Shown: one piece after another, positions 1-37,676 of the stretch
Position numbering within the stretch: position 1 is the first letter of the stretch
Layout: every line of letters starts with the position of its first letter
Source of the DNA: Squalus acanthias
Lineage: Eukaryota
Assembly: GCA_030390025.1 (NCBI GenBank)
Contig: CM059427.1
Span: forward strand, 186,744,001 to 186,808,000
Direction of reading: 5' to 3'
DNA: 64,000 bases
Notes under the pieces: model-generated
The model's database searches: none
The model's input: only the letters and a program-made list of their open reading frames with translations
Told to the model about the DNA's origin: nothing
Translations under genes and position numbers: made by a program

Positions 1-6
1 GTTAAT

Positions 7-720
7 GGCCCGGATTTTGCTGCACTAATAAAGGTGAGGCTGTCAGTGCTCACCGTTATTACTGGTTAAACTTGACAGCAAACGCTGTGTCCACACATGC
101 GCAGTTAAAGGCGGAAATCCGGAAGTTGCTGTCAGTGATACCTTGCTCCTCCACAGGGTGCGCTGTTGCAGTCTTCGCCAATGGAATTTGGACAAAGATC
201 ACTGTCATGGTGTGAACTTAAGCTAATTAACCATTATTATTCCACTAACGACTGAGGAAAAACGTAAACCTTGTTCAATCAGGAGCAACTGAATTTTAAC
301 CGTGTAGTAAGTCATATTTACTGCTTGAAAAACCTGTCTGGCCCGGAAAAATTAATTTTAGAAGTCTGGAGTCTCTTTCCCTCAGAAGAAAATTAATGTT
401 GCAGATTTTTAAAAAGATAATAATTTTGTGTTTTTCTATTTAAGTTTCTCCTTTAATCCCATGTGTATGGCCCAATGTTTATTTTGCTTTCTGTACAATG
501 ATTTAAATGTAATTTATATTTCCTGCTTTTTACTTCCCGCTTTGCCGTCTATGAGGATTCTTCAATCTGATTGGTTGATCAGCCTCCCTGCTGCTTTCCC
601 TGTTCACAGACGCCACAGATCCCCTGTAGAGGGTTCCTTATTCAAACTGAAGCCGGAAATTAGGAAGTCTGCGCTCTCAAGACCACAAAAACTTTGTGGG
701 CAGCTGCCACATTTCATACA
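7..720. mobile_element. PIF/Harbinger-type non-autonomous element (left part)
   Basis: Begins GGCCCGGATTTTGC, the GGC(C/T)NGRAWTTT-like terminus shared by many elements in this window; right end uncertain. Confidence 0.45.
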
Positions 721-904
721 TTACAACAGTGACTATACTTTAAAACGTACTTCATTAGCTTTGAGACATGCTTAGGCCAAGAAAGGTGCTCAAGAAATGC
801 AAGTCTTTCTGTACACCACAGACTACACTAAGAACACACTGAATCATTGGATAGATACAATAATATTGACCCGGACTGTACGGTCAGCAGTGAAGGATTG
901 GCGC

Positions 905-1101
905 TCGCCGTTCACCTCAAACAGCTGCCCACAAAGAGAAGGCAGGCGGTCCTGTACCCCCCAACTGGCAGGAGGCCCTCGCCACAAGTCTGCCAGGCTA
1001 TGTGGAGGGAGGTGGCACACCACGTCACGGGCAGCACTGTGCTCCCCAGGACCTCCACACAGTGCAGGAGGAAGTTTAACGAGCTCACACGAGTAGTCAG
1101 G
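905..1101 (+). pseudogene. Myb/SANT-like (MSANTD/NAIF1-type) DNA-binding exon relic of a Harbinger transposon
   Basis: Translation RRQAVLYPPTGRRP...AMWREVAHHVTGSTVLPRTSTQCRRKFNELTRVVR, ending at donor AGG|GTGAGT; W..VA..V....R...QCRK(K)FN.L is the Myb/SANT signature of Harbinger accessory proteins. Confidence 0.7.
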
Positions 1102-1189
1102 GTGAGTGAAGGCTTCAACAAATGCTACATACCACCATCTGTACCACAAGCTTCAAACACTGCTCAATGCACCACACCCCCAGCACTCA

Positions 1190-1656
1190 CTGCTTGAATA
1201 TACTCAATGACTGAGCATCTACAGCCCTCTGGGATAGAGAATTCCAAAGATTCACTACCCTCTGAGTGAAGACATTTCTCCTCATCTCAGTTTGAGATGG
1301 CCGACCCCTTATTCTGAGACTGTGACCCCTGGTTCTAGACTCCCCAGCCAGGGGAAACATCCTCCCTGTAAGAATTTTGTATATTTCAATGAGATCACCT
1401 CTCATTCTTCTAAACTCCAGAGAATATAGGCCTAGTCTACTCAATCTCTTCCTCATCGGACAATCCCCCCTTCCCAGGAATCAGTCTGGTGAACCTTTAT
1501 TGTACTCCCTCTATGGCAAGTATATCCTTCCTTAGGTAAGGAGAGCAAAACTGTAAACAGTACTCCAGGTGTGGTCTCACCAAGGCCCTATATAATTGCA
1601 GTAAGATGTCTTTACTCTTATACTCGAATCCTTTTGTAATAAAGGCCAACATACCA
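1190..1656 (-). mobile_element. CR1 LINE ORF2 3' fragment
   Basis: RLGLYSLEFRRMRGDLIE...TRGHSL...FTQRVVNLWNSL, the CR1 RT C-terminus. Confidence 0.9.
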
Positions 1657-1659
1657 GCA

Positions 1660-2125
1660 AGACACTATCAGGTCCTCACGATGTCCAATAGCACTTCACA
1701 GCCAATACATTGCTTTTGAAGTGTAGTTACTGTTGTTATCAAGGAAAACTTAGCAATCAAATTGAACTAATGAAGATCCTGCAACAGCAAATGAGATGAA
1801 TGATCACTTAAATAACAACAGAAAAAGCTGGAAAAACTCAGCAGGCCAGGCAGCATCCGTGGAGAGAGAAAGAGAGTTAACGTTTCAGGTCGATGACCGA
1901 TGATCACTTAGTCTGTTTCTTGGTGCTGTTGGTTGACGGAGAAATTTTGGCCAGGACACTGGAAGAACTCTGTGAGCTTTGATCTTTGACATCCAACTGT
2001 TCAGGCAGACAGAGTCTCGGTTTAATACCCTATTCACCTCTGACAATGCAGCACTCCCTCAATATTGCACTGAAGTTTCAGCCTAGATTATGTGCTGATG
2101 TCCTGGAGTGGGCCTTGAACCCAAC
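1660..2125 (-). mobile_element. DeuSINE-type SINE (degenerate) containing a Penelope terminal fragment at ~1813-1898
   Basis: Reverse complement resembles the 12337 and 17793 SINE copies (gcagcactccctcaatattgcactgaag); the internal segment matches Penelope 3' ends elsewhere in the window. Confidence 0.6.
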
Positions 2126-2351
2126 AACCTTCAACAACAAGTGAATAAGTTGGACTGCAATATATCACCAAGTTTATATCCAGCGTTAACAGAGATATCA
2201 ATGATATCTTGTCACAATGTCTTTCATACTTAAAAAAAAAAACTATCTGTGCTAATGGTCCATTTTAAAACGGAGTTTTTTTTTTATTAGAATGCCTGAA
2301 ATTTATAAGGAAAGCTGAATGCATTTTAACAGGTGACCTCTGTATGAACAG

Positions 2352-2450
2352 GTTTGGGAAATCAAAGACAGAAACCTCTGCAACCAGGAGAAAATATAGA
2401 AGATGCATCTCAGCTTTACTCAAATGCTAATGAAATACAGCAAATCCAAG
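2352..2450 (+). CDS. Gene A cytoplasmic exon 1 (YxN motif): (G)LGNQRQKPLQPGENIEDASQLYSNANEIQQIQ
   Basis: Acceptor tgaacag|, donor CAAG|gtaata, 99 bp, phase 1-1, open frame, joins in frame to the next exon. Confidence 0.75.
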
Positions 2451-2879
2451 GTAATATTTAAATACTAATAACATAGTAGGAGTTTTACAAGTGCTCTGCT
2501 CCATTTGTTCATGGCTATTATGAATCCCCTTTGTAATTTTCAGTTACACTTAAAAGACACTCAAACACGGAAATGTTGTGTTTTTATTCTGTCACATCCA
2601 AAAACCTGTTGAAGCTCATTCATTGAAAGTATTTGGAACTCAAGACTGGGAATTAATCTGGAACCTTCTACACTGTAGTTCAATATTATTTTATGTCATG
2701 ATGTGATTTCAACTATTTGTCATATTTCATATAACTTTGCAGGGTTACGGGGAAAGGGCGGGGGAGTGGGACTCGCTGAAGTGCTCTTGCAGAGAGCTGG
2801 CACGGGCTCGACGGGCCGAATGGCCTCCTTCCATGCTGTAACCATTCTATGATTCTATGATTCTATATGCATGGCATTT

Positions 2880-3290
2880 TACAACAACAACTTGTATTTA
2901 TATAGCGCATGTAACATAGTAAAACATCCCAAGGCACTTCACAGGAGTCTTATCAAACAAAATTTGACACCGAGCCACATAAGGAGATATAGGGCAGAAA
3001 AAAGGTAGGTTTTAAGGAGCGTCTTGCAGGAGCAAAGGGAGGCAGAGAGGCGGAGAGGATTAGAGAGGGAATTGTAGAGCTTAGGGCCTTGGCAGCTGAA
3101 GGCACGGCCGCCAATGGTGGAGCGATTAAAATAGGGGATGCTCAAGAGTCCAGAATTGGAGGAGTGCAGAGATCCTGGAGGGTTGTAGGGCTGGAGGGGA
3201 TTACAGAGATAGGGAGGGGCGAGGCCATGGAGGGATTGAAAACAAGGAAGAGAATTGTAAAATCAAGGCATTACTTAACCAGGAGCCAAT
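2880..3290 (-). mobile_element. L2 LINE 3' end
   Basis: GGRAFS...PKLYNSL...KTLLKTYLF and (CAA)n tail; homologous to 14800-15850. Confidence 0.85.
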
Positions 3291-3771
3291 TTAGCCCATT
3301 TTAACATATTCTGATCTTCATTTGGAGACTTTCAAACCATTAACATTAATAAAACACATCACACAACAACAGCTTGTGCTCCTTTAAATCTCACTTATCG
3401 TGTTATAGTTTGCTGTGTCTCCCAATTCACAGTCTGATTAATAGTTGCATTTTGAGTCCTTAACACTTCCCCTCTAAAAGAGAGCTCACACATTTCCTCA
3501 GATATCACCCTACAACCATTAGATTCCTCCAACACACATCACAAATACTCCAGTGTTTCTAAAACCACTCGAGACAACTAGTGCCAAAGATTCAGAACGT
3601 CATGAACATCTTTTTTAGACATTAATGTTTCCTCTGAAGGACTGATCCCACTTTCCTGATCATTCGAATATAACTCATTAGCAATGGAGCAGTTTTTGTA
3701 TAAATGCCTGATACAGCTTTTTGAAAATCAGACCATGCTAACGTCTTAATTGGAAAAATATTTTTTCCCAG

Positions 3772-3849
3772 GAGATAATGAGATGCCGGTGCCTGAGACA
3801 AGTAGATTTTCTGAATATGCAACTGTCAGTAAAAAGACAAAAGAAGACG
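3772..3849 (+). CDS. Gene A cytoplasmic exon 2 (ITIM SEYATV): GDNEMPVPETSRFSEYATVSKKTKED
   Basis: Acceptor ttttttcccag|, donor GACG|gtaagg, 78 bp, phase 1-1, open frame. Confidence 0.8.
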
Positions 3850-4222
3850 GTAAGGAGATGAATCATATTATGTGGCTCTATCAGTGGAGGTATTGTTAAC
3901 ATAGAACGTGTCAGATTTCATTGAGTTAAACTGTTGGTTCTGGTTTAAAACTTTGGCTCGGAAGCTCTTCAGAGAGGCAATGATAAATTCTGAGATATTT
4001 TAACAATCTTTAGTAAAATAGATCTTTGTGATGCTGGTCCAATATAAAAAGCTTCAAGCACAATAGAGCAACCTATTTATTCAGTCAGTTTAGTCATTGT
4101 GTAGATCACAAGTTTGCAATAGGAATGGCTGTTTAGAAATAATATGAATCACTAAAACAAAGTAAACAAGTAGCAACAAGTGCGAATGTCAGGATCACGC
4201 TGGGCTTTGTGACTCCACATGA

Positions 4223-7200
4223 TCATAGAAACATAAAAACATAGAAAATAGGTGCAGGAGTAGACCATTCGGTCCTTCGAGCCTGCACCGCCATTCAATG
4301 CGTTCATGGCTGAACATGCTACCTCAGTACCCCATTCCTGCTTTCTCGCCATACCCCTTGATCCCCCTAGTTGTGAGTATTATATCTAACTCCCTTTTGA
4401 ATATATTTAGCGAACTGGCCTCAACAGCCTTCTGTGGTAGAGAATTCCACAGATTCACCACTCTCTGGGTGAAGAAGTTCCTCCTCATCTCAGTCTTAAA
4501 TGGCTTCCCCTTTATCCTTGGACTGTGACCCCTGGTTTTAGTTTTCCCTAACATTGGAAACATTCTGCCCGCATCTAATTTGTCTAAACCAGTCAGGATT
4601 TTAAACGTCTCTATAAGATCCCCCCTCATTCTTCTGAACTCCAGAGGATACAAGTTCAGTTGATCCAGTCTTTCTTGATATGTCAGTCTGGCCATCCCAG
4701 GAATCAATCTAGTGAACCTTCGTTGCACTCCCTCAATAGCAAGAATGTCCTTCCTCAAGTTAGGAGACCAAAACTGCACACAATACTCCAGGTGTGGCCT
4801 CACCAAGGCCCTGTACAACTGTAGCATCACCTCCCTACTCCTGTACTCAAATCCCCTTACTATGAAGGCCATCATGCCATTTGCTTTCTTGACTGCCTGC
4901 TGCACTTGCCTTCCCACCTTCAGTGACTGATGTACCATGACGCCCAGGTCTCGTTGCACCTCCCCTTTCCCTAATCTGCCACCATTCAGGTAATAGTCTG
5001 CCTCCCTATTTTTACCACCAAAGTGGATAACCTCATATTTATCCACATTGTACTTCATCTGCCATACATTTGCCCATTCACCTAACCTGTCCAAGTCACT
5101 CTGTAGCCTCCTAGCATCCTCCTCATTGTTCACACTGCCTCCCAATTTAGTGTCATCCGCAAATTTGGAGATATTACAATTAATCCCTTCGTCCAAATCA
5201 TTAATATATAATGTAAACAGCTGGGGCCCCAGCACCGAACCCTGCGGTACCCCGCTGGTCACTGCCTGCCATTCTGAAAAGTACCCATTTACTCCTACTC
5301 TTTGTTTCCTGTGTGCCAACCAGTTCTCAATCCATGTCAACACATTACCCCCAATCCCATGGGGGAAAAATTCAGCTGCTTGCGCCTCCCGTTAGCGCCT
5401 TAAGAGGGCGCTAATGGGGCGTAAAGCAGCTAACGCCCGGGCGCAGCGCCGCCCACGCCTCCCGAAAAATTTAGTGGGAGGTTAGCGGCGGCGGCAGCCG
5501 GTAGCGCCCTGTGGCGCTGCGCCGCCGGCGATGACGTCATCGCCGTGCGCAGCACCCCGCTCGCGCCCCGGCCGTGATCTTCAGTCGCGCCCCCTGATTT
5601 ACCGCCAGACGCTATGTCTGACGGGTTCAGGGAGGCGTACGTGCGGCCGGGGCGGCGATATTTAAAGCGGAGGTGGCAGGCGGCCATTTTTGTTGCTGGC
5701 CGCCTGCCAGCACCTGCCCCCGGCCCCCGTGAAGCCCCCCCACCGTGAAGTGCCGGCTGCGCTCCAAGAGCCCGGCACTTCTCTTGAGTGCCGGGCTCTT
5801 TTGCCGGCACTCCCGATCCCTGGGGGCCCAGCTGGGCCCCGGTTCGCGCTGCGCAGGGTCCCTCCCCTTTAAGAAGGGGAGGAAGGCCTGCAATACCGCG
5901 GCGCGACGTGCCACAGCGCGTGGCGCTGCGGCACGTAGCGCCAGGATATTCACTCGCAGCGCCCCAAGAGGGATGCGGGCTGCTTCCAGTTGCGCCCCGC
6001 TTCCCTCTTGGGGCGTAACCACTGAAGTTCCGGCGCGGGGCCGCTAATTTTTTCGGGGCGCTAAAAGTCACGCCCCGGCGAGGTTAGCGCCCCAAATGGG
6101 GCGCGACTCAATTTTTACCCCCATGTGTTTTAACTTTGCACACCAATCTCTTGTGTGGGACCTTGTCGAAGGCCTTCTGAAAGTCCAAATACACCACATC
6201 TACTGGTTCCCCCCCGTCCACCCTATTGGAAACATCCTCAAAAAATTCCAGAAGATTTGTCAAGCATGATTTCCCTATCACAAATCCATACTGACTTGGA
6301 CCTATCATGTCGCCACTTTCCAAATGGTCTGTTATGACATCTTTAATAATTGTTTCCATCATTTTACCCACCACCGATGTCAGGCTGACCGGTCTATAAT
6401 TCCCTGCTTTCTCCCTCCCTCCTTTTTTAAAAAGAGGGGTTACATTAGCCACCCTCCACTCCTTCGGAACTGATCCAGAGTCTAAGGAATGTTGGAAAAT
6501 GATCGTCAATGCATCCACTATTTCCAAGGCCACCTCCTTAAGTACTCTGGGATGCAGACCATCAGGCCCTGGGGATTTATCAGCCTTCAGTCCCATCAAT
6601 TTCCCCAACACCTTTTCCCGACTGATAAGGATTTCCCTCAGCTCCTCCTTCTTACCAGATCCTTTGATCTCTTTTATTTCCAGAAGGTTGTTTGTGTCCT
6701 CCACAGTAAACACCGAACCAAAGTACTTGTTCAATTGATCTGCCATTTCTTTGTTCCCCATTATGACTTCCCCTGTTTCTGACTGCAGGGGACCTACGTT
6801 TGTTTTTACTAACCTCTTTCTTTTTACATATTTATAGAAGATTTTGCAGTCCGTTTTAATGTTCTCCGCAAGCTTCCTTTCATATTTTATTTTCCCTGCC
6901 CTAATCAAACCCTTCGTCCTCCTCTGCTGAGTTTTAAAGTTCTCCCAGTCCCCGGGTTTGCTGCTACTTCTGGCCAATTTGTATGCCACTTCCTTGCTTT
7001 TAATACTATCCTTGATTTCCCTTGTTAGCCATGGTTGAGCCACCTTCCCTTTTTTATTTTTACGCCAGACAGGGATGTACAATTGCTGTAGTTCATCCAT
7101 GCGATCTCTAAATGTCTGCCATTGCCCTTCCACTGATAACCCCTTAAATATCGCTTGCCAATCTAACCTCGCCAATTCACGCCTCATACCCTCAAAGTTG

Positions 7201-7730
7201 CCCTTATTTAAGTTCTGGACCATGGTCTCTGAATTAACTGTTTCCTTCTCCATCCTAATGTAGAACTCCACCATACTATGGTCACTCTTCCCCAAGGGGC
7301 CTCACACCACAAGATTGCTGATTAGTCCTTCCTCATTACACAACACCCAGTCCAGGATGGCCTCCCCTCTAGTTGGTTCCTCAACATATTGGTTTAGGAA
7401 ACCATCCCTTAAACACTCCAGGAAATTCTCCTCCACCGTATTGCTTCCAGTTTGAGTAGCCCAATCTATATGCATATTAAAGTCACCCATGATAACTGCT
7501 GCGCCTTTTTTGCATGCACCTCTGATTTCCTGTTTCATACCCTCCGCCACCTCACTACTACTGTTTGGAGGTCTGTACACAACCCCCACTAACGTTTTCT
7601 GCCCTTTGGTGTTCTGCAGCTCAACCCATATTGATTCCACATCCTCCAAGCTAATGTCCTTCCTAGCTATTGCATTAATCTCCTTTTTAACCAGCAATGC
7701 TACCCCACCCCCTTTTCCTTTTATTCTATC
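4223..7730 (-). mobile_element. Young 5'-truncated CR1 LINE (APE endonuclease + RT), split by a MITE
   Basis: ORFs 7302-7697 (GVVYRPP, MGDFN), 6108-7295 and 4324-5343 ([17 protein letters not shown]); (CATAGAAA)n tail at 4223. Confidence 0.95.
5361..6122. mobile_element. GC-rich ~760 bp MITE (PIF/Harbinger-like) inserted in CR1 ORF2
   Basis: TIRs GGGGGAAAAATTCA / TCAATTTTTACCCCC; 3-bp TSD (CAT or ATG), confirmed against the uninterrupted CR1 sequence at ~50470-50500. Confidence 0.85.
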
Positions 7731-7974
7731 ATATAGCTTCCCAACACTTCATATCCAGGCTCACAGATGAAGATACAATATTTGAGTTAGTTACTGGAGG
7801 ACTGTCAGTACTTGTGGAACCAAAACCTCGTGAGAGTCAGGAGAGGTGGGAGAAAAGAGAATAAAGAGTAAGGTTGGAAAAGATATAATGATCAGCGAGC
7901 TATGTTTTTAATTTACATTATTTAATAAATCTGCACCAATAGATGTACGATGTTGATGCTCCAATTTATGAGTC

Positions 7975-8320
7975 AACTTGGCAGCACTGTCACTTTGGAG
8001 ACAGAAAGTTGTGGGTTCAAGCCCCATTACAGACTTTGAGCGTGTACTCTAGACTGACACTTCAGGGGGAGGATTGCATTTTTGAAAGTGCTGTTTTTCA
8101 GTTGAGAACTGTTTAGGTGCATGTTAAAGATACCATCGTATCATTTGAAGGAGAGCAGGAAGTTGTCCTGACAAAAATTCTTCCCTCAACCAACAGCACC
8201 ACAAGAGATTAACTGGTTGTTATCTCATTTCCTGCTTTTGGGACCTTGAATAGTGTTTGTTTACCTGACAACAATACTTCAACTTTAAAGGTAATTCATT
8301 ACTTGCTTTGGGATATTTTA
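7975..8320 (+). mobile_element. Degenerate DeuSINE-type SINE
   Basis: Similarity to the 12337-12800 copy (gttgtgggttcaagcccca, gaagagcaggga). Confidence 0.55.
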
Positions 8321-8329
8321 AGGCACTAA

Positions 8330-8890
8330 GGCCTAGAAATTCAGGAGTTTAGTGCTGGTTGTTATGGCTGGTTTTGTGGAATAAATGCCATCTGCCCACT
8401 TCCGGCATGGCCGCGCCAGACGCCATATTGGTGAGGACAAAACAAAGGTGTTGTTTAGTTTCATCTGAAGCAGGTGTTAGGCCATTAACATATTCAAATA
8501 AGGGGCCTAACGCCTGCTTCTGCTCCCTCTTGCAAATTTGGCTTGTGTCTGAGGCAGCCACCACCAGTGATGTTTACTCCCGGTAAAACAAACGTTAAAC
8601 AGTGCCGAATGGAAAAAAGGTAAGTACTTACATTAGCATCTCTGACCTCACTCTCGACTCCAACCTCCAGGCCCTCTCCAATCTCCCCCCCCCGATGCTG
8701 GCCCCGACCTCCAGGTCCCCCCCCCGCCGATGCTGGCCCCGAGTCCCGACCCACCTCACAGTCCTTGCTGGGCTGAATAATGATAATGAACGGGCAGCAC
8801 CAAAATACCGGTGTTGCCTGTGCTCTTTTTGCGGCCGGCCATTAACCTCGGCCCACGGTGGCACCGGCAGCTTTCCGACCTACTGGGCCT
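8330..8890. mobile_element. Harbinger-type non-autonomous element
   Basis: GGCCTAGAAATTC start; internal sequence nearly identical to 37677-38271 (gaagcaggtgttaggc...aacatattcaaa...gggcctaacgcctgcttctgctccc). Confidence 0.7.
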
Positions 8891-8935
8891 AAATATATAG
8901 ATGCAAACTCTTTATTTCCATCTTATTCTCTGCAG

Positions 8936-8992
8936 ACACAGAAAGAGAAGATATTCATTACGGATCTATCGTTTTTCAGAAAAAAGCACCAG
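8936..8992 (+). CDS. Gene A cytoplasmic exon 3 (ITIM-like IHYGSI): DTEREDIHYGSIVFQKKAP
   Basis: Acceptor tcttattctctgcag|, donor CCAG|gtagtg, 57 bp, phase 1-1. Confidence 0.8.
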
Positions 8993-11175
8993 GTAGTGAA
9001 AACTAACATTTTTCTTTTTTTTTCATTGTTGTGTTCATCCAGGTGAGGAATGTTAGTGCTGGGTAAAAAAACTCATTATATTTAGGCACCTAATGTCAGC
9101 ATCAGGCACTCCTCGGGTAAAGCTCCTCATACTCTGCCCTGTCAAAATGCCCCATCGCCAACCTCAGAAGGGCACCAGTGGGCCATTTTTCCATTTGCCA
9201 CACACACACATCTTGTGCCCTCTCTGAGTGAAATTGCCAATAATGTTGAATTAAGAAAGTATTGTGCTGCAGGTCTGTTCCTAGTAGGAACTGCTCTGAG
9301 ACTGTAGAACTAGAAACAACAAATATTAACGTACCTCAACAGTAAGACACAGTATTGTGGTGACTACGGTACAGGACTAAAAACCGGAAAGTCAGGATTT
9401 CCAACCCTACCGTGGTATGCAGTGAAACCGAATCTTTTAAACCTCATAATTTGTGGCCAGCACCAGGGAACTCTAGATAATTGGGTTTACTAATGTCCTT
9501 CAGGGAAATGCACTTGTCTTGTCGCTTAAGTTGGACTCTAAACCACACTTGCTCTCTGAAGTATACAACTGCTTCAAGAAGAATGTCCACGGCCGCCTTA
9601 GGGCAACTGGGGATGGGCATTAAATGTGATTCTGATCAGGGTCAGCCACATCCTGAGAATAAACATATAAAATGGTGTAGGATGGCGAAGGGCCCTTTTA
9701 GATCAGTGCATTCTCCTGCACAGACAATAAAGCACGGTAACTGTTGGCGACATTGTATACTTTATTAATAGAATCGGTAGTGTCTTTCCAATTGGAATTT
9801 TTTCCAGAAAAAAAGGTGACTTGATAGACAACCTCTGTATTTATAACTAATTTTGAACAAAAGGTTGACGTTATTGGCAATATGGAACCATAGTAAGTGG
9901 AAATCATCTGACATTCTTGAATGATGTCACACCAAATATTGCACATGTGGCGTAGAACTTGATTCAGCCTTCTGAGGGCCAGCTCGGCTTAGGGGTCGCC
10001 CTCTCACCTCTGAGAAAGAAGGTCATGGGTTCACGCCTTGCTTGCTGCAATCTATGCAGAGGGACTGTTGCATTGTTGGAGGCCTAGAACAATGACTAAA
10101 CTATAAAAGTGTTTCATTTGCTTTGGGATGTCCTGAGGATGTGAAAGGCACGATGAAAAATTCTTCCCAAGTTGATATAAGTAAAGCTGATTTTCCTATC
10201 AGAAGCTAGAAAACACTTATTCCCTGGGCCTTAATGATAGGAAAAAGGGGTGGTGATCTGTGACATGGGACCTCCATCCCTTTTATGTTGCCTGCATGCT
10301 TCAATGGAGATACGATTGGAGGAGCAGTTCCCACTTCCTCCAGCCTCACTTTCCTGTGGTTTCATCTGAAGAGCACCCACTTCCAACAGCACCTCAATGA
10401 GCTCGCAGTGGGTCATGCAATCTCCCAACCATCATGGAAGCCTGAACTAAGCCTTGTGACTGATGGTCAACAGCCAGAACGCCCTGAGACCGGTGGCCCA
10501 TCCCACGGTTGCAGGTCCTCTCAGGCCTGCAGATGTGGTTTGTATTCTGTCCGTTTCCCAGGGGACGGCTCTTCTAGGAAGTGGGCCTGCAACAGTAGTT
10601 CAATCAGACCATGCTAATGACCTGACCAACCAGATTAAGACAATCTGAGGCCTGGACAGGCAGATCCCTCTTTGAGTCTGCTCCACCTGTGCAGCACCCG
10701 GGCAAGGAGGGACCAGGAGAATCAAGCACGACATCTAATATAGCATAAATTGTAAATGGGGTTTTATTAAAGATTATTGGGAAAAGGCAGGGAAATGGGA
10801 TTAGAATAGGGGGCTGCAGTTGAACAGCTAGCACCAACCTAGCTACAATGGGCCAAATGGCCTCTTGCTGTGCTGTAATTTCTTTGCTTTCTAACACTGC
10901 AGCAGCAATGAAACTCTCAAACTCTGCAGAGTTGTGTAAGGAGCTTTGTTCATTTATGACCATCCTGTGGCTCACTGTGTAAATGCAGTGCTTAGTGTGG
11001 ATCTGAGTCATACAGAGGCCAACTGGGTTCACCGTCAATCAATGTCTTGCTGATCCATTGGCTGTACCAGTGAAATGCAGTAAATTGCGGACATTTGTAT
11101 GCCAATTGTCAGGTTTTTTTGTCAGTCCGATCCATTAAAGTTATCCTTTAATTGTGATGTTTGCAATTATCACAG

Positions 11176-11219
11176 GGTCCAGACATGGTACGCAGTGCAA
11201 TAAGCAATCTTCAGATACT
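11176..11219 (+). CDS. Gene A cytoplasmic exon 4: GSRHGTQCNKQSSDT
   Basis: Acceptor ttatcacag|, donor ACT|gtaagt, 44 bp, phase 1-0; bridges the phases of the flanking exons exactly. Confidence 0.75.
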
Positions 11220-11359
11220 GTAAGTATATCGATTCCTATTGGTGAAATCACACAACCTACAATATTAATATCTGCAACAAATTTGTAAAGTTGTTATCTG
11301 ATGTAAAGAGATGCAATAATAGATCACATTATTATAAATGGTTAATTTCTCTCTTGCAG

Positions 11360-11431
11360 AACCTGGCTCCTTCAAAGGAAGATGATTCATCTGTCATCTA
11401 TGCACAAATAGCGCAATCAAAATATAAATGA
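11360..11431 (+). CDS. Gene A terminal exon (ITIM VIYAQI): NLAPSKEDDSSVIYAQIAQSKYK*
   Basis: Acceptor tttctctcttgcag|, phase 0, TGA at 11429-11431, followed by an AT-rich 3' UTR. Confidence 0.82.
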   Translation, partial: NLAPSKEDDSSVIYAQIAQSKYK

Positions 11432-11702
11432 TCTGCACAGGACAGAGAGGAAGAGCTTGGAGTTCAATATGTGGAATATAACATTTTTGGGAACTGATAT
11501 TTTTACCTGAGAACAGATATGTAGCTTTCTTCCTATGTATCTGCTCTGATTTAACACAATCATTGCGTCACGCTTTTCAAACATGAACATAACTTACGAA
11601 TGATAACTTGCAATAGAAATGGTTCTCTTAACATAGTTTCAACAATCCTTTCACAGCTTCTGCTGATGCTATGTAAAAAAAAAAAGCAGCTACGTTATGA
11701 AA

Positions 11703-11708
11703 AATAAA
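11703..11708 (+). terminator. Candidate polyadenylation signal of gene A
   Basis: AATAAA about 270 bp after the stop codon. Confidence 0.5.
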
Positions 11709-11776
11709 TTGAATGTTACACGTAATTTTGTTGCTCATTCAATTAATCTCTCAGACGTGTAATAACCAATAATGAT

Positions 11777-12190
11777 GTGGTAGCATAGTGGTTATGTTAC
11801 TGGACTGGTCATCCACCACGGCAGCTGGGGAATTTAAATTCAGTGAATTAAATAAATCTGGAATAAAAAGCTAGTGTTAGTAATGGTGACCATGAACCTA
11901 CCGGATTGTTGTAAAACCCCATCTGGTTCACTAATGTCCTTTCGGGAAGGAAATCTGCCGTCCTTACCCGGTCTGGCCTACATGTGACTCCAGACCCACA
12001 GCAATGTGGTTGACTCTTAACTGCCCTCTGAAATGGCCGAGCAAGACACTCAGTTGTACCAAACTGCTACAAAGAAGAACTGCAGCGGTTCAAGAAGGTG
12101 GCTCACCACCACCTTCTCGGGGGCAATTAGGGATGGGCAATAAATGCTGGCCTTGCCAGCGATGCCCACATCCCATGAACGAATAAAAAG
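11777..12190 (+). mobile_element. tRNA-headed short element sharing both 5' and 3' ends with the LINE at 28455-31637
   Basis: Head (A-box-like tagtggtt; gcagctggggaatttaaattcag...gccctctgaaatggcc) and tail (ggttcaagaagg...gcccacatcccatgaa) both match that LINE. Confidence 0.8.
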
Positions 12191-16340: not shown

Positions 16341-16462
16341 AAGAGACAACGCCATTTACTTTGTGCAGAGCAACGACTGAGAACCTCAGTGTGTTGTGTG
16401 TCGCTGTGCTGGGAGCTTTGCTGCTCAGTCTCTGGACTTCTTCACTAGTCTCTTCCCACAAG
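16340..16462 (+). other. Probable non-coding first exon of gene B
   Basis: Unique sequence ending at donor CAAG|gtaggc; no in-frame ATG; the next acceptor-bearing exon (23025) carries the ATG. Confidence 0.45.
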
Positions 16463-17287
16463 GTAGGCAATCTTACTGCAAACATTCTTTTTAAAGGATT
16501 GATTTAAATGTCTTTTGAATAACTGATCACATTTCTCAAAGATGTTGCAGCCTTTAGACTAAACGAGGGCATCAAGTGCTTATTTATATGGTTTCCTCTC
16601 CTTTTTCATAAAACTCCAATAAGGGGGTTTCTTACAACTCAATGACTGCCGTCTGCTATTTTACACATTTTAAGCTTTCCTGCTTGTTGCCTGGTCGATA
16701 TAAAAATTTTGTCTTTAACTGGATTTGTTTTTTCTGGTTTCCCAAGTGATGCTCTGGTTCTGTTTGAGGTTTTCATTGTCCTTCAAAGTTCTGCTGGCGA
16801 TTCAGTTCTTTGACTAATCAGTGATGCCCAATTTAGTTGAAAATGTCTCGCAGAGAAATAGGAAGTAAAAGAGTGAAAAACTAAAATGTGAGAGAAGAGA
16901 TGAACCATTATGGGGAAACTTGATTGGCAGCCCTTAGTGTGGGCTTGACGACTGCCCCTACTTTTAGTTCAGCTCCTCCAGTGAATATGATACAGGGAAA
17001 AGCAGAAGCTCTAATTGACCTAAGGATCTGCCTGAAACCCGTTACCTTCTAATTGAGCTCGGAAAGCACAGCAATTACACCTTGCAGTCTGAAATCGTAA
17101 CATTGAGTTATCACAGTTTCCCTTTATCGGCACAGTAATACAGTGTGTGTGAGATGGTGCAATGCTCCTACCCTTATAAACCAGCCTCTGACCTACTGGG
17201 AGCAGCACCATAGCAGATACACTACCTTTAAAGAATTCTGTTTGGAAATCTATAAGCAGAAGAATTGTGGCCTATTTACGGTCATTT

Positions 17288-17680
17288 GGATCTTTAAAAT
17301 GTTAAACAATAATAAAATTGAGAAGTCGCACAGCACCAGGTTATAGTCCAACAGTTTTATTTGAAATCACAAGCTTTTGGAGCGGCCGCTCCTTCGTCAG
17401 GTGAATAATCCGAATAATAAAATTGTCATGGGCTTGTTTAACTGTTCTTGACTCAGGCCATGTGAGTAACCCAAAGCAGTAGATGGTTCTCTTGGGTCAC
17501 AGTTTTAGATGAAACACATTTGGGCCTTGGGTAGATCGCTGAACGATGTCAATGTTGTTAATCTAAAATTGTGACGCTAAGGTAAACCATCTACTGCTTT
17601 GGGTTAGTCACATGACCTAACTCAGGCCCAGTTAAACAAGCCCATGACCATTTCATTATTGTCCGACATTTTAGAGACCC
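17288..17680. mobile_element. Palindromic MITE with ~120 bp arms, interrupted by a Penelope terminal fragment (~17320-17412)
   Basis: gtcatgggcttgtttaactg...acccaaagcagtagatggtt pairs with aaccatctactgctttgggt...cagttaaacaagcccatgac; TTAA on the right flank; the insert is flanked by direct repeat AATAATAAAATTG. Confidence 0.7.
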
Positions 17681-17792
17681 TTAAAAAAATGGTTTTACTT
17701 ATGTTTCAGACTTGATAGATATTTTATTTGTAATTCCAAATATAAAAATTATTAGTTTCACATAACTTGCAGACAAAACACTCAAAATATAA

Positions 17793-18192
17793 GGTGTCAG
17801 CTGTGGCTCAGTGGTCGCACTCTCGCATCTGAGTCAGAAGATTGTGGTTAATGTCCGACTCCAGAGACTTGAGCACATAATCTCGGCTGATACTTCAGTG
17901 CAGTATTGAGGGAGTGCTGCACTGTCAGAGGGGTCGTCTTTCGGATGTCCTATCTGCCCTATCAGGTAAACGTTAATGATCCCAGGGCACTATTGAAAGA
18001 AGAGCAGGGCTGTTCTCGTGTTGTCCTGGTCTAATTTATTCCTTACCCAAAATCTAAAAAAGATGTTCTGATCATAAATTTCATTAATGTTTGTGAAACT
18101 TGCTGTGCGCAGGTTGGCTGACGTTTTTACTACATTACAAATGTAATTTATTGTAAAGTGTTTTGGGATGTCCTGAGGTTGTGAAAGACACT
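17793..18192 (+). mobile_element. DeuSINE-type SINE
   Basis: Homologous to 12337-12800. Confidence 0.8.
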
Positions 18193-18194
18193 AT

Positions 18195-19500
18195 GGGCTG
18201 GATTTTACCAACCTCGGTGGGTCCGTGGCGGGCGTCGTCGGTGACGGGTCCCGGCCTCACTGAAGGCTCCAGCCCACGGTGTAGAATGAATTTCCCTTGA
18301 TGGGGCTTGTTAAGCCCACCCAGCACGTTTCCCGGCCAATTAGAGGAAGCGGGTCTGGTGACGTCATTTGATGATGCGTCCTCAGCCGGTTTCCTTAAAG
18401 GGACCATGGCCAACTTTAATTTGACTTTTGTACTGTCAGTGTTCTATAGCATTGAGGTGCTGCAAACACTGACAAGCACGGCACAGGGCTGTACCCAAGC
18501 TCTCCCAGAACTCCCTCCATAAGCATATGGATGGAGTCACAGTACACAGGGAGATCCTCTTCCCTTCCCATGGGTGGAGAAGACCTCCCTAGGAGATCAA
18601 CACAGCCTGGTTGCACATTGCACAGGACGGCACAAGCAGGGATGTTGTCAGGAGGACCTAGATGCAGTGGCGCAAACGTTTCAATGATCTCAGTAGATCA
18701 CGAAACATTAGCACAATGCCACATTCAACCTCATCCTGCTGTGCCTCTCATCACATCCCCATCACTCTGCCTTCCCTAACCTACTCCTGCACATCCTTAC
18801 ACACACCAACTTATACTTGCGCCTCCACCCATCCCTCTCTATCTACATTATCACTTCCCCATCTCACTAGCCACCCCTCACACTCATCCTCATCCTAGTG
18901 CAATCATACCAACTAACAACACACAAGGGTGTTTTATGCAATGTTCATGTAAAGTTTCTGTTAATGTGGTGGCAGATATTGAAACCTTTATTTTCAACAC
19001 TTTGAGTTCTTGGACAGATTTGTGTGCACAGATTTGTTTGGAAGTGGCTTAGTGGGTTGCAGTGAATTGTGAGACATAACGTTACCCCCCGCAATGTTCA
19101 TGAGTGTGAAAGGAATGGTTTGGACATTGTAGGGATGCTTTATGGTGTTGGTGAGGGGTGGTGCCAACCTGGTGCATCATGTGACAGCCATATAGTTACA
19201 GTGTAAAGTTAACTAAATCTGGCCATGATGAGGCCATCCCGGGCAATATGCTCGTGTGCTGATGCCCGCTGTCCTGTGCAGCGTCAGCTGTTTGTGGTGA
19301 AGGTTGGTGTTGTTGTTGGTGCTGCCAATGTGCCTAGTGATGCTGGAGTTGGGGCTGATTGTGGTGGGATTCTGCAGACCTAGGTGAGAGATTATAAAGT
19401 GCAGTGATGCTGATGGAATAGATGGCAGGGGAAGTAGAAATGACAGAAGCCATCTGTCAATGGTGGGAGAGGTAATGAGGTCAGACTGGATGGAGACTTG
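18195..19500. mobile_element. Degenerate Harbinger element (Myb/SANT relic on +, transposase 5' relic on -)
   Basis: Terminus GGGCTGGATTTT; QWRKRFNDL at ~18665; 19210-19400 resembles the reverse of 34400-34580. Confidence 0.65.
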
Positions 19501-20027
19501 TGTAAAGACTTGCAGCATTCTGAATCTGTAGTGGAAATACACTTTAGAGAAGCTAGTGGTGAAGGGAACATTTCTCAATCAGCTGGGAGATTTGACTTGA
19601 CATTTGAAGCTGTCAACTCATCAGCTGAAACAATGGCCACTGACCTCCCACCTCAACTTTACAGACGAGGTCTCGGCACAGCGGGAAACTGGTGGGCGAC
19701 CTGTCATATTCAAATAGCTGGGGAAAAGCTTGGTTAAGTGGCTGTAAACAAGCCACTAATGATTTTAATTGCACCCACAGGCAGTGGGATTGGTTTTTGG
19801 ATTGTTCTAGCAGGTGCTGGCAGACACAACGGGACAAGTTCTTCTGTGATGTAATCTTCAATGTCTCCATAGAAAGGACGGATGGCATTGAAGATTATAG
19901 TGAGCAATTATCTTTGTATCCATCCAAAAGAGCCTAATCTTGGAGGTAATCATTTATTTGTTACAATTCTGCCTGAGATGTAGAGGAACAAGAATTACAG
20001 CTGAGAGAATAAACACAAAAAGACATT

Positions 20028-20750
20028 GGGACGGATATTCCGATCCCTACGGGTGTGTACGCGCTGTGTACCCACCCATAGGGACATCGGAAATGCCGGT
20101 TTCAGGCATGCACTGCGCATGCGCTGAAAACCGGCATTTCCGATCTGTCAAGAATGCTCTTGACAGATCCTTCGGCTGCCCTGGAGAAGGGCCTCTGCAG
20201 GCGGATAGTTCCGCTTTTTGGAGACGCTCCACCCACAGAAAACCCTTACAATTCTTACGCCTGGTAAAAGCAGACGTAAGGCCTGCTTTTAGCAGGATAA
20301 GAGTTGAAATTTTTTTTTAAATTTCACTGATTTATCATTTAAAAATACTTTAAAAATAGGTAAGTTTAATTATTTTTTAAAAAATAAATTTTTGTTTAAA
20401 ATACTTAATTTATTGTAATTTCAAGTCATTTTAAAAATGTGATTTTTAAAAAATTATTTAAAGTTTTAGTATGTTTTTTCATTGATCTCCATTCATATAT
20501 TTGACAGGTCTTCCTGTCAAATGTATGAAGGGAGATTCGCTTCTGTGATTGGCTCCCCATTGCCCACGTGATCCCAGGGATGCTGTGCACTACATGCGCC
20601 TCTGGGATACGTGGGCCCTGCGCACTTCAAGTTTGGAGAGGCCCAGGAGCGGAAGCGTGTGTGTCCCGGGAGCCCTCAGGTAAGGGCGCAGATTTTTCCA
20701 GATCGTAGGCCTCCGCCCACAGGAGGTCTGTGATAGGAAAGTACGGGTCA
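20028..20750. mobile_element. Harbinger-type MITE
   Basis: GGGACGGATATTCCG...GGAAAGTACGGGTC ends; internal palindrome ccggtttc...gcgcatgcgc...aaaccgg shared with the 14120, 24570 and 26447 elements. Confidence 0.55.
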
Positions 20751-21419
20751 TTGATCTTTTAGAAGGAATGGTGTTCCTCTAACCTCATTCCAACCCATTT
20801 CCACACAAACACACACACAAACACACACACACGTGTATTTGTGTGCAGACACGCATTAGAGAGAAATAACATTCATTTATATACTGCACTTGACATCGAG
20901 GCAACATTTAACCGTGTGTGGCACCAAGGAGCCCCAGTAAAACTGAAGTCAATGGGGATCAGGGGGAATACTCTCCAGTGTTTGGAGTCAAACCTGGGAC
21001 AAATGAAGATGTTTATGGTCAATGGAGACCGATCATTCCATCCTAAGGACATTGCTGCCCACCATTTTGGTAGAACAGGACGCCATTTTGTGCCCTTAAA
21101 ACAGGGACTGCATGCTGGGATTTTTTTGGTCCCAGACCCAGATAGGCTGCTTCCAACTCCAGGTTGCTGATATAAATCATATGCAATCTCAAGACAAATA
21201 ATTTAATTGCTTAATAGAGTGCACCAACCTGAGGGAAATTACCAAGTAGCTCGCACAACTGACAAGCAAAATATATTGGTGCACAGGTGTGATCGAACTA
21301 AGCGGACTCAGATTTGGCTCAGTGTTAGTGATGAACACACCTTTCCTTTTGGTAACTACTTCTTTTAACCCTAATCCTGACCTGTAGTTTATATTATTTT
21401 ACATCAGGTTGTTTTTTTT

Positions 21420-21810
21420 TAATTTATTCATTCATGGGATGTGGGTGTCGCTGGCAAGGCCAGCATTTATTGCCCATCCCTAAATGCCCTTGATTTTAGA
21501 ATCTAGAATAAAAGGGCATATTCTCAGAATAAGGGGGCACCCATTTAAGATGGAGATGAGGAGGAATTTCTTCTCTCAGAGGGTCGTGAATCTTTGGAAT
21601 TCTTTACCCCAGAGAGCTGTGGAAGCTGAGTCATTGAATATATTCAAGGCTGAGATAGACAGATTTTTCAGCAACAGGGGAGTCAAGGGTTATGGGGAGC
21701 GGGCAGGAAAGTGGAGTTGAGGCCAAAATCGGATCAGCCATGATCTCATTAAATGGCAGAGCAGGCTCGAGGGGCTGAATGGCCTGCTCCTGCTCCTATT
21801 TCTTATGCCC
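21420..21810. mobile_element. LINE tail (-) with inserted CR1 3' fragment (+, ~21495-21808)
   Basis: KGHILRIRG...FFSQRVVNLWNSLPQ...KGYGERAGKW inside a reverse tail of the 28455-type LINE. Confidence 0.8.
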
Positions 21811-21904
21811 TTGTGAAGGTGGTGCCCTGTAATATCCGTTCACTGGGGGGCTAAAAAGCCTTGTAAAGGTTTTTTAAAAAAAATGCACAGCAAAAATTTC
21901 TTTC

Positions 21905-22570
21905 AATAAATTATTCTTGAGATATTGGCATTGCTGGTAAAGCTGGCATTCTTTGCCCATCACCAGTTGCCCTTGAGAAGGTGTGGGTGGGCCTTCTTCT
22001 TGAACCTCTGCAGTCCATGTGTGAAGGTGCTCCCACAATTCTTTTAGGTCGGGAGTTCCAGGACTTTGGTCCAGCGACAATGAAGGAACGGCGATATATG
22101 TCCAGTTAGGATGGCGTGTGACTTGGAGGGGAACTTGAAGGTGATGGTGTTCCCATGCACCTGCTGTACTTGTCCTTCTAGGTGGTGGAGATCGCAGGTT
22201 CTGGAGGTGCTGCCGAAAATGCCTGGCGAGTTGTGCAGTGCGTCCTGTAGATTGGACACACTGCAGCCACGGTGCGCAAGTAGTGCAAGGCGGGAATGTT
22301 TATGGTAGTGGATATGTTGCCAATCAAGCGGACCGCTTGTCCTGGATAGTGTCGAGCTTCTTGCAATTGGAGAGTATTCCATCACATTCCTGACTTGTGC
22401 CTTGTAGATGGTGGAGAGGTTTTGGGGAGTGAATTGATACAGCAAACCCAGCATCTGACCGGCGCTAGTAGCCATGGCATTTATATGGCTGGTACAGTTG
22501 AGTTTCTGGTCAATGGCGATCCCATGGAAGTTGCTGGTGGGGGATTCGGTGATAATAATGCCATTGAAAG
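21905..22570 (-). mobile_element. 3' fragment of the 28455-type CR1-like LINE
   Basis: TPQNLSTIYKAQVRNVMEYSP; homologous to ~30930-31620. Confidence 0.85.
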
Positions 22571-23024
22571 CATGTTATTATATAGACATTATCAATAAAT
22601 GGAGCAGCAGTGAACAAGAAAATGTTAATTGCTGTTAATTCATAGTCATTTGTATAACATTCATAAATTTTCTGATCAGTTTTAATTAATTACGTATAAG
22701 TGAAAATTTTAGTGGAGAAAACTTTTGCTAGTGTACATTTTGTCCATTCTTCTGACAATTGGTAATTACATTTCACTTTTTATTTCTACTTCAATGACTT
22801 TATTTTCAGTTGGAAAGTCTATGTGGCTGGTGGATAAGAGGTGGATTTTGCATGGTCCATTGTTTATTAGGATGAGTAACTTTTAATACACTTCTCACAG
22901 GAAGAGGTGGAGAAGAAGTTTATGAAGAAATTTACTGAAGATGTTTATTGGACATTTTACAGTTCCAAGTTAGAATGGGGAAATAATTTGGAAAGCTCTT
23001 TTACCTCATTTCTTTTCTTCACAG

Positions 23025-23126
23025 TCTGAAGTGTTAAACATATTCAGGAAATGTGCCTCGGTTTTACTTCTGGTGGTTTTCTGGTGCTATATCTATATCT
23101 ATATCTATATGTATATTTCTTACAGG
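23025..23126 (+). pseudogene. Gene B leader exon: ATG 23051, MCLGFTSGGFLVLYLYLYLYVYFLQ(G); splice donor apparently mutated
   Basis: Strong acceptor tttcttttcttcacag|; hydrophobic 25-aa peptide ending in phase 1 (matching the D1 exon) but followed by GAAAGA instead of GTAAGA. Confidence 0.6.
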
Positions 23127-23754
23127 GAAAGAGACTGAATCTGTGAAATGACGCTACGATTTTTCTGCAGCAAAATGCCAGCTGGTTTGATGTTCAGTTT
23201 CTTTGTGTTTCGAATGGCAAACTAGAATCAAAAGAGTAAAATTTTTCCAGCTTGACCTTTAATACAAAGTGAAACAGATGTACACAAGCACACAAGGAAA
23301 TATTTGTGGCATTGTGTTACGAAGAACATAGTTATCACAGTGAGCACCCATGTTCAAATAGCCTGGATAAAAACATCTCCTGTAGTCAAAACACTCTTCT
23401 CACAGCGCAGTGCGTGCCCTCAGAATGTTTGACTTTGCTCAGACTTTTAAGCAGAAATCAATTCAAGATTTCTAGGATAACTTTTAGTTTTGTTTCCACA
23501 GTGTGTAGCGAGGGGTTGTTATCTTTCGTGTACTTTAGCTTTATATCATTAAACGGAGGGCACACGTCCAAATCCTACAATCGAACAGTAGTTAAAGATT
23601 TCTTTAGTTATTTTTGCAAGTTTCATGTGAACACATTATTTAGCATACTCTATTCTACATGCAGTTAAATTCTGAAAATTAAATTGATTGCTCACGAATA
23701 AATATCCTTTAGAAACACAGAAGGCCAGACAGGGAGGCAGATAGAAAGTATTCA

Positions 23755-24400
23755 CTTTAATTACTTGGGAAGTTGAATAAGAAAGTTAAATAAAGTGAAC
23801 ATCTATCAGATTTCAGCGACCAATTCTGTCCTTTCAACTCAAAAATGAACAACGTAACAAACAATATATCGATATAAATATGGAAAATAGATTTATCTAT
23901 TACCAGTCTAAATGAGGACTAAATAATATATTTTAATTCTGAAAATTAACATTGAATATATGGCTGGGAATCTCTTTCTGAAGTTCAACAACATTACTTG
24001 TCGGAGTATTAGACCTTTACTGAGTATCAAAACAGAAAGTTGTAAACATAGGGACTAAAAGATTGTGAGTTTGGATGAAACAAAACCAAAATGCTGATAT
24101 ATGAAATAAGTCCAAGTACCAGTTTAATTAAAAGTTTCAGAAGTCTTTAGAAGTTTTAAAAAGTTTTTAAAATGTAATTTCAATGGAAGAGACTGAGAGA
24201 CGTTTCTGTGGGCGTGGCTTAGTTTTGGCAGGTTTTGTGGGCGTGTCTTCCCTTACGCATAGGCTGTACGCTGCGTGCCGCCTCCCTGATGTCATACGCT
24301 GCGCAGAGCTCTGCAGCACAGAAGAGCAAGTCTCCGTTCTGGGCCTCGCACAAGGTAAGTTTGTATATCTTTTCATAGGTCGGCGGCGTACTCCGTAGCT
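23755..24400 (+). repeat. Low-copy duplicated block, copy 1 (paralogous to 63080-63968)
   Basis: Long near-identical AT-rich stretches (agttgaataagaaagttaaataaagtgaacatctatca...) plus the GC-box/donor segment. Confidence 0.9.
24183..24354 (+). other. Candidate alternative (MITE-derived) first exon with Sp/KLF boxes
   Basis: ATG 24183 open to CAAG|gtaagt in phase 1, in frame with D1; GGGCGTGGC and GGGCGTGTC boxes; lies at a MITE end (…ccacaatttttcggcc, ~24426). Confidence 0.35.
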
Positions 24401-25172
24401 ACACCGCCGACCACAATTTTTCGGCCGTTGTTTCACTTTATCATAGTGTTTAATGAATTCACACACCTAGTATTCAGAAAGCAAGTAAAGTCTTTATTTT
24501 CATGTCCCTGCTCCTTTAAACAGGATGTGTAAGTTCCCTTTTCAGATTCCAGCAATGGAACAAAATAATGACCTGGATTTTCCGGGGTCTATGACGGCGT
24601 ACGTGGTGCGTACACGGCCGTAAGTACCCCGCAGGTTCTCGGTTTCCACATGAGCTGCACATGCACGAAAACCAAGTGCTGCTTTATCTCTGTAACGTGT
24701 CTCTTCAGACAAGGTGGGTGGGGGGCGGACGCAGGAACCGCCTGATCTCCGCCCACCTTTGGAAACCCTGTCACAGGACAAACAGGGTGGAGACTCGACA
24801 TAACCGTATCCTGCCCCAATTTCTCTCCCTGAGCTCCTGCCCACCTGATAATGCCCCCTGTAGACCAGGAGTCAGGAGGAGATTTGGAGCTTTTATTTTC
24901 TGTAACATGAATGAACCATGTGCACTCTTTTTACTTTAGTTATTTTTTGTAGTAATGATGTATGTTCTGATAATTCTAGCAATAGATACACTGAATGTGT
25001 AATGGAATTGTTCTGTTTTTCTCTGTAATAGTGTCTGCAGTGAAGGCAACATGTTCAGTTGAATATAAAAATATGACTGTATAAAATGAACTCCAATATA
25101 AATAATTACAAATATGAGATTAAGGAGTTGTGATTTGATTTAAAATGTTTACATTGTTCCTCTTTCTAACAG

Positions 25173-25514
25173 GAAAACCAAATCATATTTATTTTTTGGA
25201 TAAGCGAGGTGACTTTCAGTTAAAAGGATCGGAAAATCCTGGGAATGGCCCTGTTGTCTGGGAATGGAAACCACACTCAGGGCAAGAAATCCAGCGACTG
25301 GTTACTTTTCACAAAGGGAGTTCGCGCTGGTGGGGCGCACAATGGAACGATCACATTGGAAACAAGGAGTTGTACGAAAAGACATTGCAGGATGGTGGTT
25401 CCATTAATCTGAGAATTAGAAAACCCACATTTAAACTTGCGGGATCATTTATCTTGACTCAAACACAGCCAAGTAATAAAACCCTGGAACAGTATGAAAT
25501 ATTTGGGATCAAAG
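25173..25514 (+). CDS. Gene B Ig D1, V-like, no cysteines
   Basis: Acceptor tctttctaacag|, donor AAAG|gtgagt, 342 bp, phase 1-1; VVWEWKPHSG (C strand), NLRIRKPTFKLAGSF (E-F), QYEIFGIK (G). Confidence 0.85.
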
Positions 25515-27505: not shown

Positions 27506-27775
27506 TTGAGTCAAGTCCACAGAGTGCTGTGGTGGGCAGTGACGTTACACACAGCTGTACCATCTCCAAACTCTCAGATACAGTCAGTCTTCAATGGAAA
27601 CAGAGAGACTCATCTGAGCAGAACAGGAGGAACACTGATCAGATCCGACTAAATAACACAGTCTATCTGATAGTCAAACATGTAGCAGTAGAGGATAAGG
27701 AGTTGTACGCGTGTGAAGTGCAGGAAGATGGATCCATTATTCTCCCTGGAAATGTAGATTTTTCTGTGGCCCAGG
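27506..27775 (+). CDS. Gene B Ig D2, C2-type
   Basis: Acceptor tttttcacag|, donor CAGG|gtaagt, 270 bp; VGSDVTHSC...LQWKQ...LIVKHV...DKELYACEV. Confidence 0.9.
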
Positions 27776-33986: not shown

Positions 33987-33987
33987 T

Positions 33988-37225: not shown

Positions 37226-37227
37226 TG

Positions 37228-37675: not shown

Positions 37676-37676
37676 G

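Follow-up and report, generated by a model that had tools for sequence, protein, structure and literature searches.

A 64,000-nucleotide stretch of the Squalus acanthias genome (positions 186744001-186808000 of contig C3; hereafter the window) carries near its start five short exons that very probably form the spliced cytoplasmic tail of an eight-immunoglobulin (Ig)-domain receptor related to CD4 and LAG-3, likely an inhibitory member of a paired-receptor family. The tail is real and of an ordinary kind, exon-modular tails with immunoreceptor tyrosine-based inhibitory motifs (ITIMs) being already known, as in PECAM-1 (PMC5664058), and it apparently sits on an undescribed paired-receptor branch of the CD4/LAG-3 family. 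An initial annotation of the window had recognized the tail, while the ectodomain, the gene cluster and the kinship with CD4 and LAG-3 escaped it.

The other exons of the gene are found on C3, upstream of the window, positions 1..2351 (+ strand) being the intron that follows the transmembrane exon. Reading of the upstream DNA gave, also on the + strand, a signal-peptide exon (C3:186690366-186690453), eight Ig exons (C3:186695292 to 186740748) and a neutral transmembrane exon (C3:186742682-186742789), the last of these 1.2 kb before the window. Joined with the tail, they make up 15 coding exons across 65 kb with frame and splice sites intact, amounting to 997 codons with one stop, and a type I membrane protein with an uncharged transmembrane segment is encoded in a single frame. 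The ectodomain is a V-C2-V-C2 unit present twice (eight Ig domains), the order and the modelled fold both occurring two times in the gene. The first V domain of each unit has no cysteine, a WxC motif is present in both fourth domains, and the second domains read YAC and YTW rather than WxC. Among 65 homolog matches, those with the same layout came from sharks and rays only, the closest being from Pristiophorus and Heptranchias (81-84% in the V exon); most are labelled 'uncharacterized', and one nurse shark record is named obscurin-like. Some homolog models (P0001, P0002, P0003) run to 1400-1720 residues, a length that suggests an ectodomain of three or four cassettes or else adjacent genes annotated as one.

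The five tail exons all lie on the + strand. Exon 1 (2352..2450, 99 bp) encodes LYSN, a YxN motif of the Grb2 type and the most labile of the series; exon 2 (3772..3849, 78 bp) encodes the ITIM-like SEYATV and exon 3 (8936..8992, 57 bp) the canonical ITIM IHYGSI. Exon 4 (11176..11219, 44 bp, phase 1-0) is a spacer without tyrosine, and the coding part of exon 5 (11360..11431, 72 bp) supplies a second canonical ITIM, VIYAQI, together with the stop codon. Direct reading of the sequence confirmed the exons, splice sites, phases and lack of internal stops given by the initial annotation: AG acceptors are present on all five exons and GT donors on the first four, the phases run 1-1-1-1-0, and the spliced frame is open up to the stop at 11431 and translates into the same peptide. 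The phrase "one tyrosine motif per micro-exon" was less exact, holding for four of the five exons, exon 4 being the one without a tyrosine. Usual cut-offs for micro-exons are 27 or 51 nt, so that at 44-99 bp most of these are better called short exons. The 3' untranslated region is placed provisionally at 11432..11777 (+ strand), with the first AATAAA at 11703 and a contig from run X3 covering 11360-11777. A scan of positions 2001-12000 for phase-1 exons with a tyrosine motif, which is a weak test, gave four on the + strand and none on the - strand. Amongst the paralogous copies read (16, 20, 20, 21 and 21 for exons 1-5, respectively), the tail splice sites are intact in all.

Splicing was surveyed in public sequencing contigs from four runs (X1-X4; two studies, organisms A and B), which are taken to be RNA by guess. 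All four junctions proposed for checking in the initial annotation are bridged, each with GT..AG borders: 2450>3772 and 3849>8936 in three of the four runs, 8992>11176 in two and 11219>11360 in all four. The joint from the transmembrane exon to tail exon 1 was seen on a paralog in two of the four runs. Because at most 0.42 of the sampled words occur in these runs, their contigs stem from relatives or paralogs and leave the exact gene unproven; the junctions therefore indicate that the family is spliced in relatives, without showing the same for this copy.

The tail contains conserved motifs of the ITIM consensus (S/I/V/L)xYxx(I/V/L) (bioRxiv 2021.06.11.448072). VIYA(Q/K)(I/V) in exon 5 is kept in 21 of 21 paralogous copies, and the full IHYGSI-type consensus of exon 3 in 18 of 20, with the tyrosine itself in 19 of 20. 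The exon 2 tyrosine is found in all 20 copies, the -2 position being serine in five and alanine in 15; SEYATV is thus weak as an ITIM because its fit to the consensus depends on that serine. In exon 1 the tyrosine is retained in 8 of 16 copies and YxN is intact in 6 of 16. A subset of 38 of the 65 homologs, selected for carrying the third or fourth motif and hence circular for those two, includes motif 1 in 31 and motif 2 in 28. On the paralog retention counts, the firm core of the tail is the pair of ITIMs in exons 3 and 5, the first two motifs being accessory. The motif claims of the initial annotation consequently stand for IHYGSI and VIYAQI and are weakened for SEYATV and YxN, and its description of the tail as inhibitory agrees with the predicted effect of a neutral transmembrane exon and two conserved ITIMs. 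The tyrosines fall at residues 904, 930, 949 and 988, with spacings too wide for a tyrosine-based activation motif of immunoreceptors (ITAM), Yxx(L/I)x6-12Yxx(L/I).

Phosphorylated ITIMs recruit SHP-1 and SHP-2, and YxN is a Grb2 SH2 site. By analogy with ITIM biology, ligand binding would lead to Src-family phosphorylation of IHYGSI and VIYAQI, and the phosphorylated ITIMs would offer docking sites for SHP-1 or SHP-2 and dampen activation. A role of the tail as an immune brake is likely. Exons 1 and 2 would be accessory modules whose variation arises mainly among gene copies, through point loss, deletion and duplication, with splicing probably a minor contributor.

Several approaches point to kinship with CD4 and LAG-3. 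A profile search of 1.84 billion proteins found relatives in chimaera, sturgeons, bowfin, eels, tarpon, carps, characins and frogs, followed by CD4 and LAG-3 of coelacanth, lungfish and caecilian; taxon names were checked for 20 of the 150 listed matches, and long multi-Ig proteins also score in this search through summed repeats. The relatives so checked are unnamed or bear generic names. Bichir and paddlefish relatives came from a further search. In HH-suite, the family profile matched 12 CD4/LAG-3-type proteins collinearly over four domains (99.9%, E 3.5e-36), compared with E 3.2e-17 for a rough multi-Ig control. A structure model of a four-domain family member reached a predicted local distance difference test (pLDDT) score of 85, superseding a first model from a shallower alignment (pLDDT 59), and the six best Foldseek rows obtained with it were LAG-3 and CD4. 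The best VIA match was rat CD4 D3-D4 (Z 16.1, root-mean-square deviation 2.5, 171 aligned).

The family nevertheless stands apart from both proteins. In a tree of the membrane-proximal V-C2 domains (34 chosen rows, unrooted, some rows labelled by tail motif), a 97/97 branch sets off the 22 family rows from those of LAG-3 and CD4; an earlier quick tree gave 87 for the family. Two unnamed WxC-bearing multi-Ig proteins with ITAM-type tails (P0171, P0175) fall between the family and CD4/LAG-3. The genome's own CD4 (YCPH tail) and LAG-3 (FPGLE tail), which have WxC in D2 and D4, are located on C3283, a separate 379-kb contig with no chromosome assigned to it; they were left out of this second tree because CD4 D3 was not found. 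On C3283:83000-196000, CD4 (+ strand) and LAG-3 (- strand) face tail to tail, unlike the head-to-tail order reported for catshark, and the missing D3 on this contig may reflect a partial copy or an assembly matter. As to the gene studied here, WxC occurs in D4 only rather than in strand F of both D2 and D4, the tail has no Cx(C/H) motif of the CD4 kind, five tail exons replace the single exon with (F/Y)xxL(D/E) of LAG-3, and the locus is flanked by P4HA and ARAP instead of being the shared CD4/LAG-3 locus. By the criteria in PMC10768021, as far as its text was available, the gene is neither CD4 nor LAG-3, and the family belongs beside, not inside, both.

Family exons span approximately C3:186.43-189.52 Mb, a cluster of about 3 Mb for which all counts are lower bounds. 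At least 16 neutral transmembrane exons were recognized, 15 of them on C3 (one frameshifted), along with at least 21 of activating type (14 lysine, 3 isoleucine, 4 glutamine); the 15 neutral and 21 activating-type exons are interleaved within C3:186.45-189.48 Mb. The two types share nearly identical membrane-proximal domains: in the next unbroken gene downstream, which comprises eight Ig exons and a transmembrane exon with lysine, the last C2 exon is 99% identical to that of the gene studied here; genes with similar ectodomains and opposite signalling ends are thus clustered. ITIM tails beside charged-transmembrane sisters are a paired-receptor layout of fish (bioRxiv 2021.06.11.448072). The tail of the lysine type is short and tyrosine-free in homologs, and from these two features the lysine-bearing sisters would be expected to signal via a DAP12-type adaptor. 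Both tail types recur in sharks and rays, and lysine forms also in bowfin and sturgeon. The cluster is flanked by genes for prolyl 4-hydroxylase alpha (best match P4HA2, close to P4HA1) and ARAP (best match ARAP3). The seven activating-type exons with isoleucine or glutamine in place of lysine (L139-L145) could belong to non-signalling decoys.

Variation among the distal V exons (the best 30 of 66 matches) is concentrated in one stretch, with a nonsynonymous rate (dN) of 0.198 versus 0.054 elsewhere, the codon window 46-80 having been set by eye on earlier copies. This concentration suggests that the stretch is a ligand-binding face, and the variable membrane-distal V domain is likely the predicted ligand-binding part. 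The synonymous rate (dS) rises as well (dN/dS 1.08, 0.73-1.69), so selection on the stretch is not established. A V-set search of the genome gave antigen-receptor-type matches elsewhere and none in the cluster among 150 scored, and a search for class II beta of the major histocompatibility complex (MHC) gave no match anywhere in the genome assembly.

A number of observations weigh against a CD4/LAG-3-related inhibitory receptor. Over whole chains, TM-scores against CD4 and LAG-3 reach only 0.25-0.33, and sequence-profile searches of solved structures were generic, one profile placing PD-L1 first and the other ranking titin, CEA and NCAM above LAG-3. The contigs bridging the tail junctions derive from other organisms or paralogs and leave expression of the exact gene unestablished; dN/dS in the tail and distal V shows neither diversifying nor purifying selection; and several cluster copies are broken. 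G6f-like proteins, the top atlas lead, are also absent from the tree; no named G6fL sequence appeared among the homolog matches (for the profile search, among the 20 of 150 matches checked by name). A shark expansion of G6f-like (G6F/G6B) receptors, which would make this an inhibitory receptor of thrombocytes or erythrocytes rather than of leukocytes, is accordingly worth weighing: in the atlas feature search, g6f-like clusters take the top two ranks for an eight-domain homolog (0.95) and ranks two and three for one of four domains, and the four Ig domains and YxN motif of G6fL (PMC3528668) are both matched here (LYSN, intact in 6/16 copies). CD4 clusters, however, score equally in the atlas (0.96), and G6fL signals through an ITAM (PMC3528668), whereas the shark tail lacks one and the family matches collected contained no ITAM tail of the teleost type. 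The flanking P4HA and ARAP genes may also speak against it. This origin is considered unlikely.

Less probable still is a decaying duplicate in an unstable cluster, without independent function. Such decay would fit the broken neighbours and the orphan tail cassettes, as would the dN/dS near 1, with wide intervals, of the tail exons among recent paralogs; a 15-exon frame intact over 65 kb and the keeping of all four tyrosines are hard to reconcile with it. The least credible alternative is that of duplicated LAG-3 or CD4 genes with a newly gained tail. It would account for the V-C2-V-C2 order, the WxC in the fourth domain and the best fold matches, but it is largely refuted by the tail motifs (neither Cx(C/H) nor a single-exon (F/Y)xxL(D/E) tail), by the genome's own CD4 and LAG-3 on C3283 and by the tree, which separates the family; WxC is also lacking from the second domain. 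The inhibitory member of a CD4/LAG-3-related paired-receptor family therefore remains the preferred reading of the gene.

The use made of the tail exons is a separate question, the initial annotation having proposed that they could be skipped independently and so tune signalling. The symmetric phase 1-1 it noted for exons 1-3 is correct, but every coding exon through tail exon 3 is phase 1-1, Ig exons included, and the symmetry is thus not special to the tail. All seven skip combinations of exons 1-3 preserve the frame and the last ITIM, while skipping exon 4 shifts the frame and loses that ITIM. Among RefSeq isoforms of a horn shark gene (XP_067900054-57) exon 2, exon 1 or exons 1-3 are left out, and two Heptranchias isoforms (XP_067852160/61) differ by exon 2, although all of these are annotation models. 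In five other isoform sets all tyrosine exons are kept or the same one is absent throughout. No skip joint occurred among the contig joints listed (15 of 199 and 15 of 116), contigs being prone to drop rare forms. Gene copies, in comparison, differ in the DNA itself: the paralog at 188.01 Mb has no exon 2, that at 189.24 Mb is missing exon 3 entirely and exon 2 for the most part, that at 188.83 Mb has exon 2 doubled, and homologs also show a doubled exon 1, 2 or 3. Modularity is therefore observed at the level of gene copies, and modularity by splicing is plausible. Independent skipping is backed by frame logic and the RefSeq models, with only canonical joints among those listed. The stronger proposal, that regulated skipping of exons 1-3 is the main means of tuning the receptor signal, is possible but doubtful: the in-frame combinations, the isoform models and the PECAM-1 precedent (PMC5664058) favour it, whereas the isoform sets without a tyrosine-exon difference, the canonical joints and a last ITIM that is not cleanly skippable do not, and paralogs lacking exons in the DNA could mimic skips in short reads.

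Downstream in the window lies the next family gene (16390..42774, + strand), which is broken. Its signal-peptide exon is interrupted at about 23211, six Ig exons follow with frameshifts in those at 36046-36391 and 42063-42400, and no transmembrane exon was found for it before the following gene. A hydrophobic exon at 16390-16461 was ruled out as the signal peptide for want of an in-frame ATG, the real one lying downstream. Long open frames at 4240-5360 and 6120-7740 (- strand), 29000-31600 and 49700-51400 are, judged by eye, presumably retrotransposons of the long interspersed nuclear element (LINE) type; the intronic ones are well covered by contigs from all four runs. A tandem repeat of about 42 bp at 47115-47995 is open in several frames on both strands. 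Elsewhere, orphan tail cassettes (exons 2-5, 4-5 or 2-3) occur at C3:187.26-187.29, 189.30-189.33, 186.60 and 188.41 Mb, repeat downstream of whole genes and could act as alternative 3' ends. A divergent single family gene is located at C3:173.79-173.80 Mb (L120-L122), 12.6 Mb from the cluster, and close copies at C26:26.26-26.28 Mb (L123, L124; with a stop and a frameshift), C9:7.34 Mb and C1512. MLF matches were found on contigs C5 and C7.

The literature searched, which covers few subscription journals, contained no account of this family, though an earlier mention is possible. The main paper on shark CD4 and LAG-3 (PMC10768021) takes one copy of each as default; in the part of its text examined there is no mention of such a family, and a term search of its supplement was also blank. 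A tentative and rather speculative proposal is that the family is a third CD4/LAG-3 branch, an ancient paired system of sharks, rays, chimaera, basal and otophysan bony fishes and frogs with more than 30 genes here, which would act as a KIR/LILR-like sensor of MHC or pathogen mimics and whose inhibitory strength would be set by one-tyrosine exon modules gained or dropped. The cluster offers candidates for self-recognition receptors of natural killer or myeloid type in cartilaginous fish, and the family bears on the origin of CD4 and LAG-3. The tail clearly illustrates exon-by-exon motif evolution, with loss, deletion and duplication among paralogs of one genome, but its exon-per-motif layout is by itself ordinary, and the undescribed family is the interesting part.

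KIR, LILR and Siglec are comparable paired-receptor clusters, with inhibitory, activating, truncated and broken genes and variation in gene content. Of the individual systems, LAG-3 (CD223), including that of sharks, shares the V-C2-V-C2 unit, WxC in domain 4, the best Foldseek match and a tail of inhibitory type, but is described as a single gene whose tail occupies one exon and carries an ITIM-like motif, FxxL (PMC10768021), whereas in the shark family the tail spans five exons and bears true tyrosine ITIMs, the ectodomain is doubled, its first domain is free of cysteine, and there are dozens of copies as well as activating sisters. CD4, again including that of sharks, resembles the gene in domain order, D3-D4 fold and multi-exon tail (PMC10768021); the gene differs in having no Cx(C/H) LCK-binding motif and in its locus. 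G6fL, compared by description only, is similar in its four Ig domains, tail YxN and place as top atlas lead, and unlike in being an ITAM-bearing activating thrombocyte receptor for collagen, the shark tail having ITIMs (PMC3528668). PECAM-1 (CD31) also spreads its tail over several short exons, and splicing out one of them abolishes SHP-2 binding; it is an unrelated six-Ig adhesion receptor in which skipping was shown experimentally (PMC5664058), while the shark case is built on frame logic and RefSeq models. The DICP and NITR clusters of fish come close in organization, with tandem ITIM, charged-transmembrane, truncated and broken genes, variation in gene content and, in bowfin DICPs, doubled ectodomain cassettes (bioRxiv 2021.06.11.448072). 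DICP domains, however, have conserved cysteines (C23 and C104 in D1 and D2, against the cysteine-free first domain here) and their genes are MHC-linked (bioRxiv 2021.06.11.448072), whereas the shark family is built on a CD4/LAG-3-like scaffold and flanked by P4HA and ARAP.

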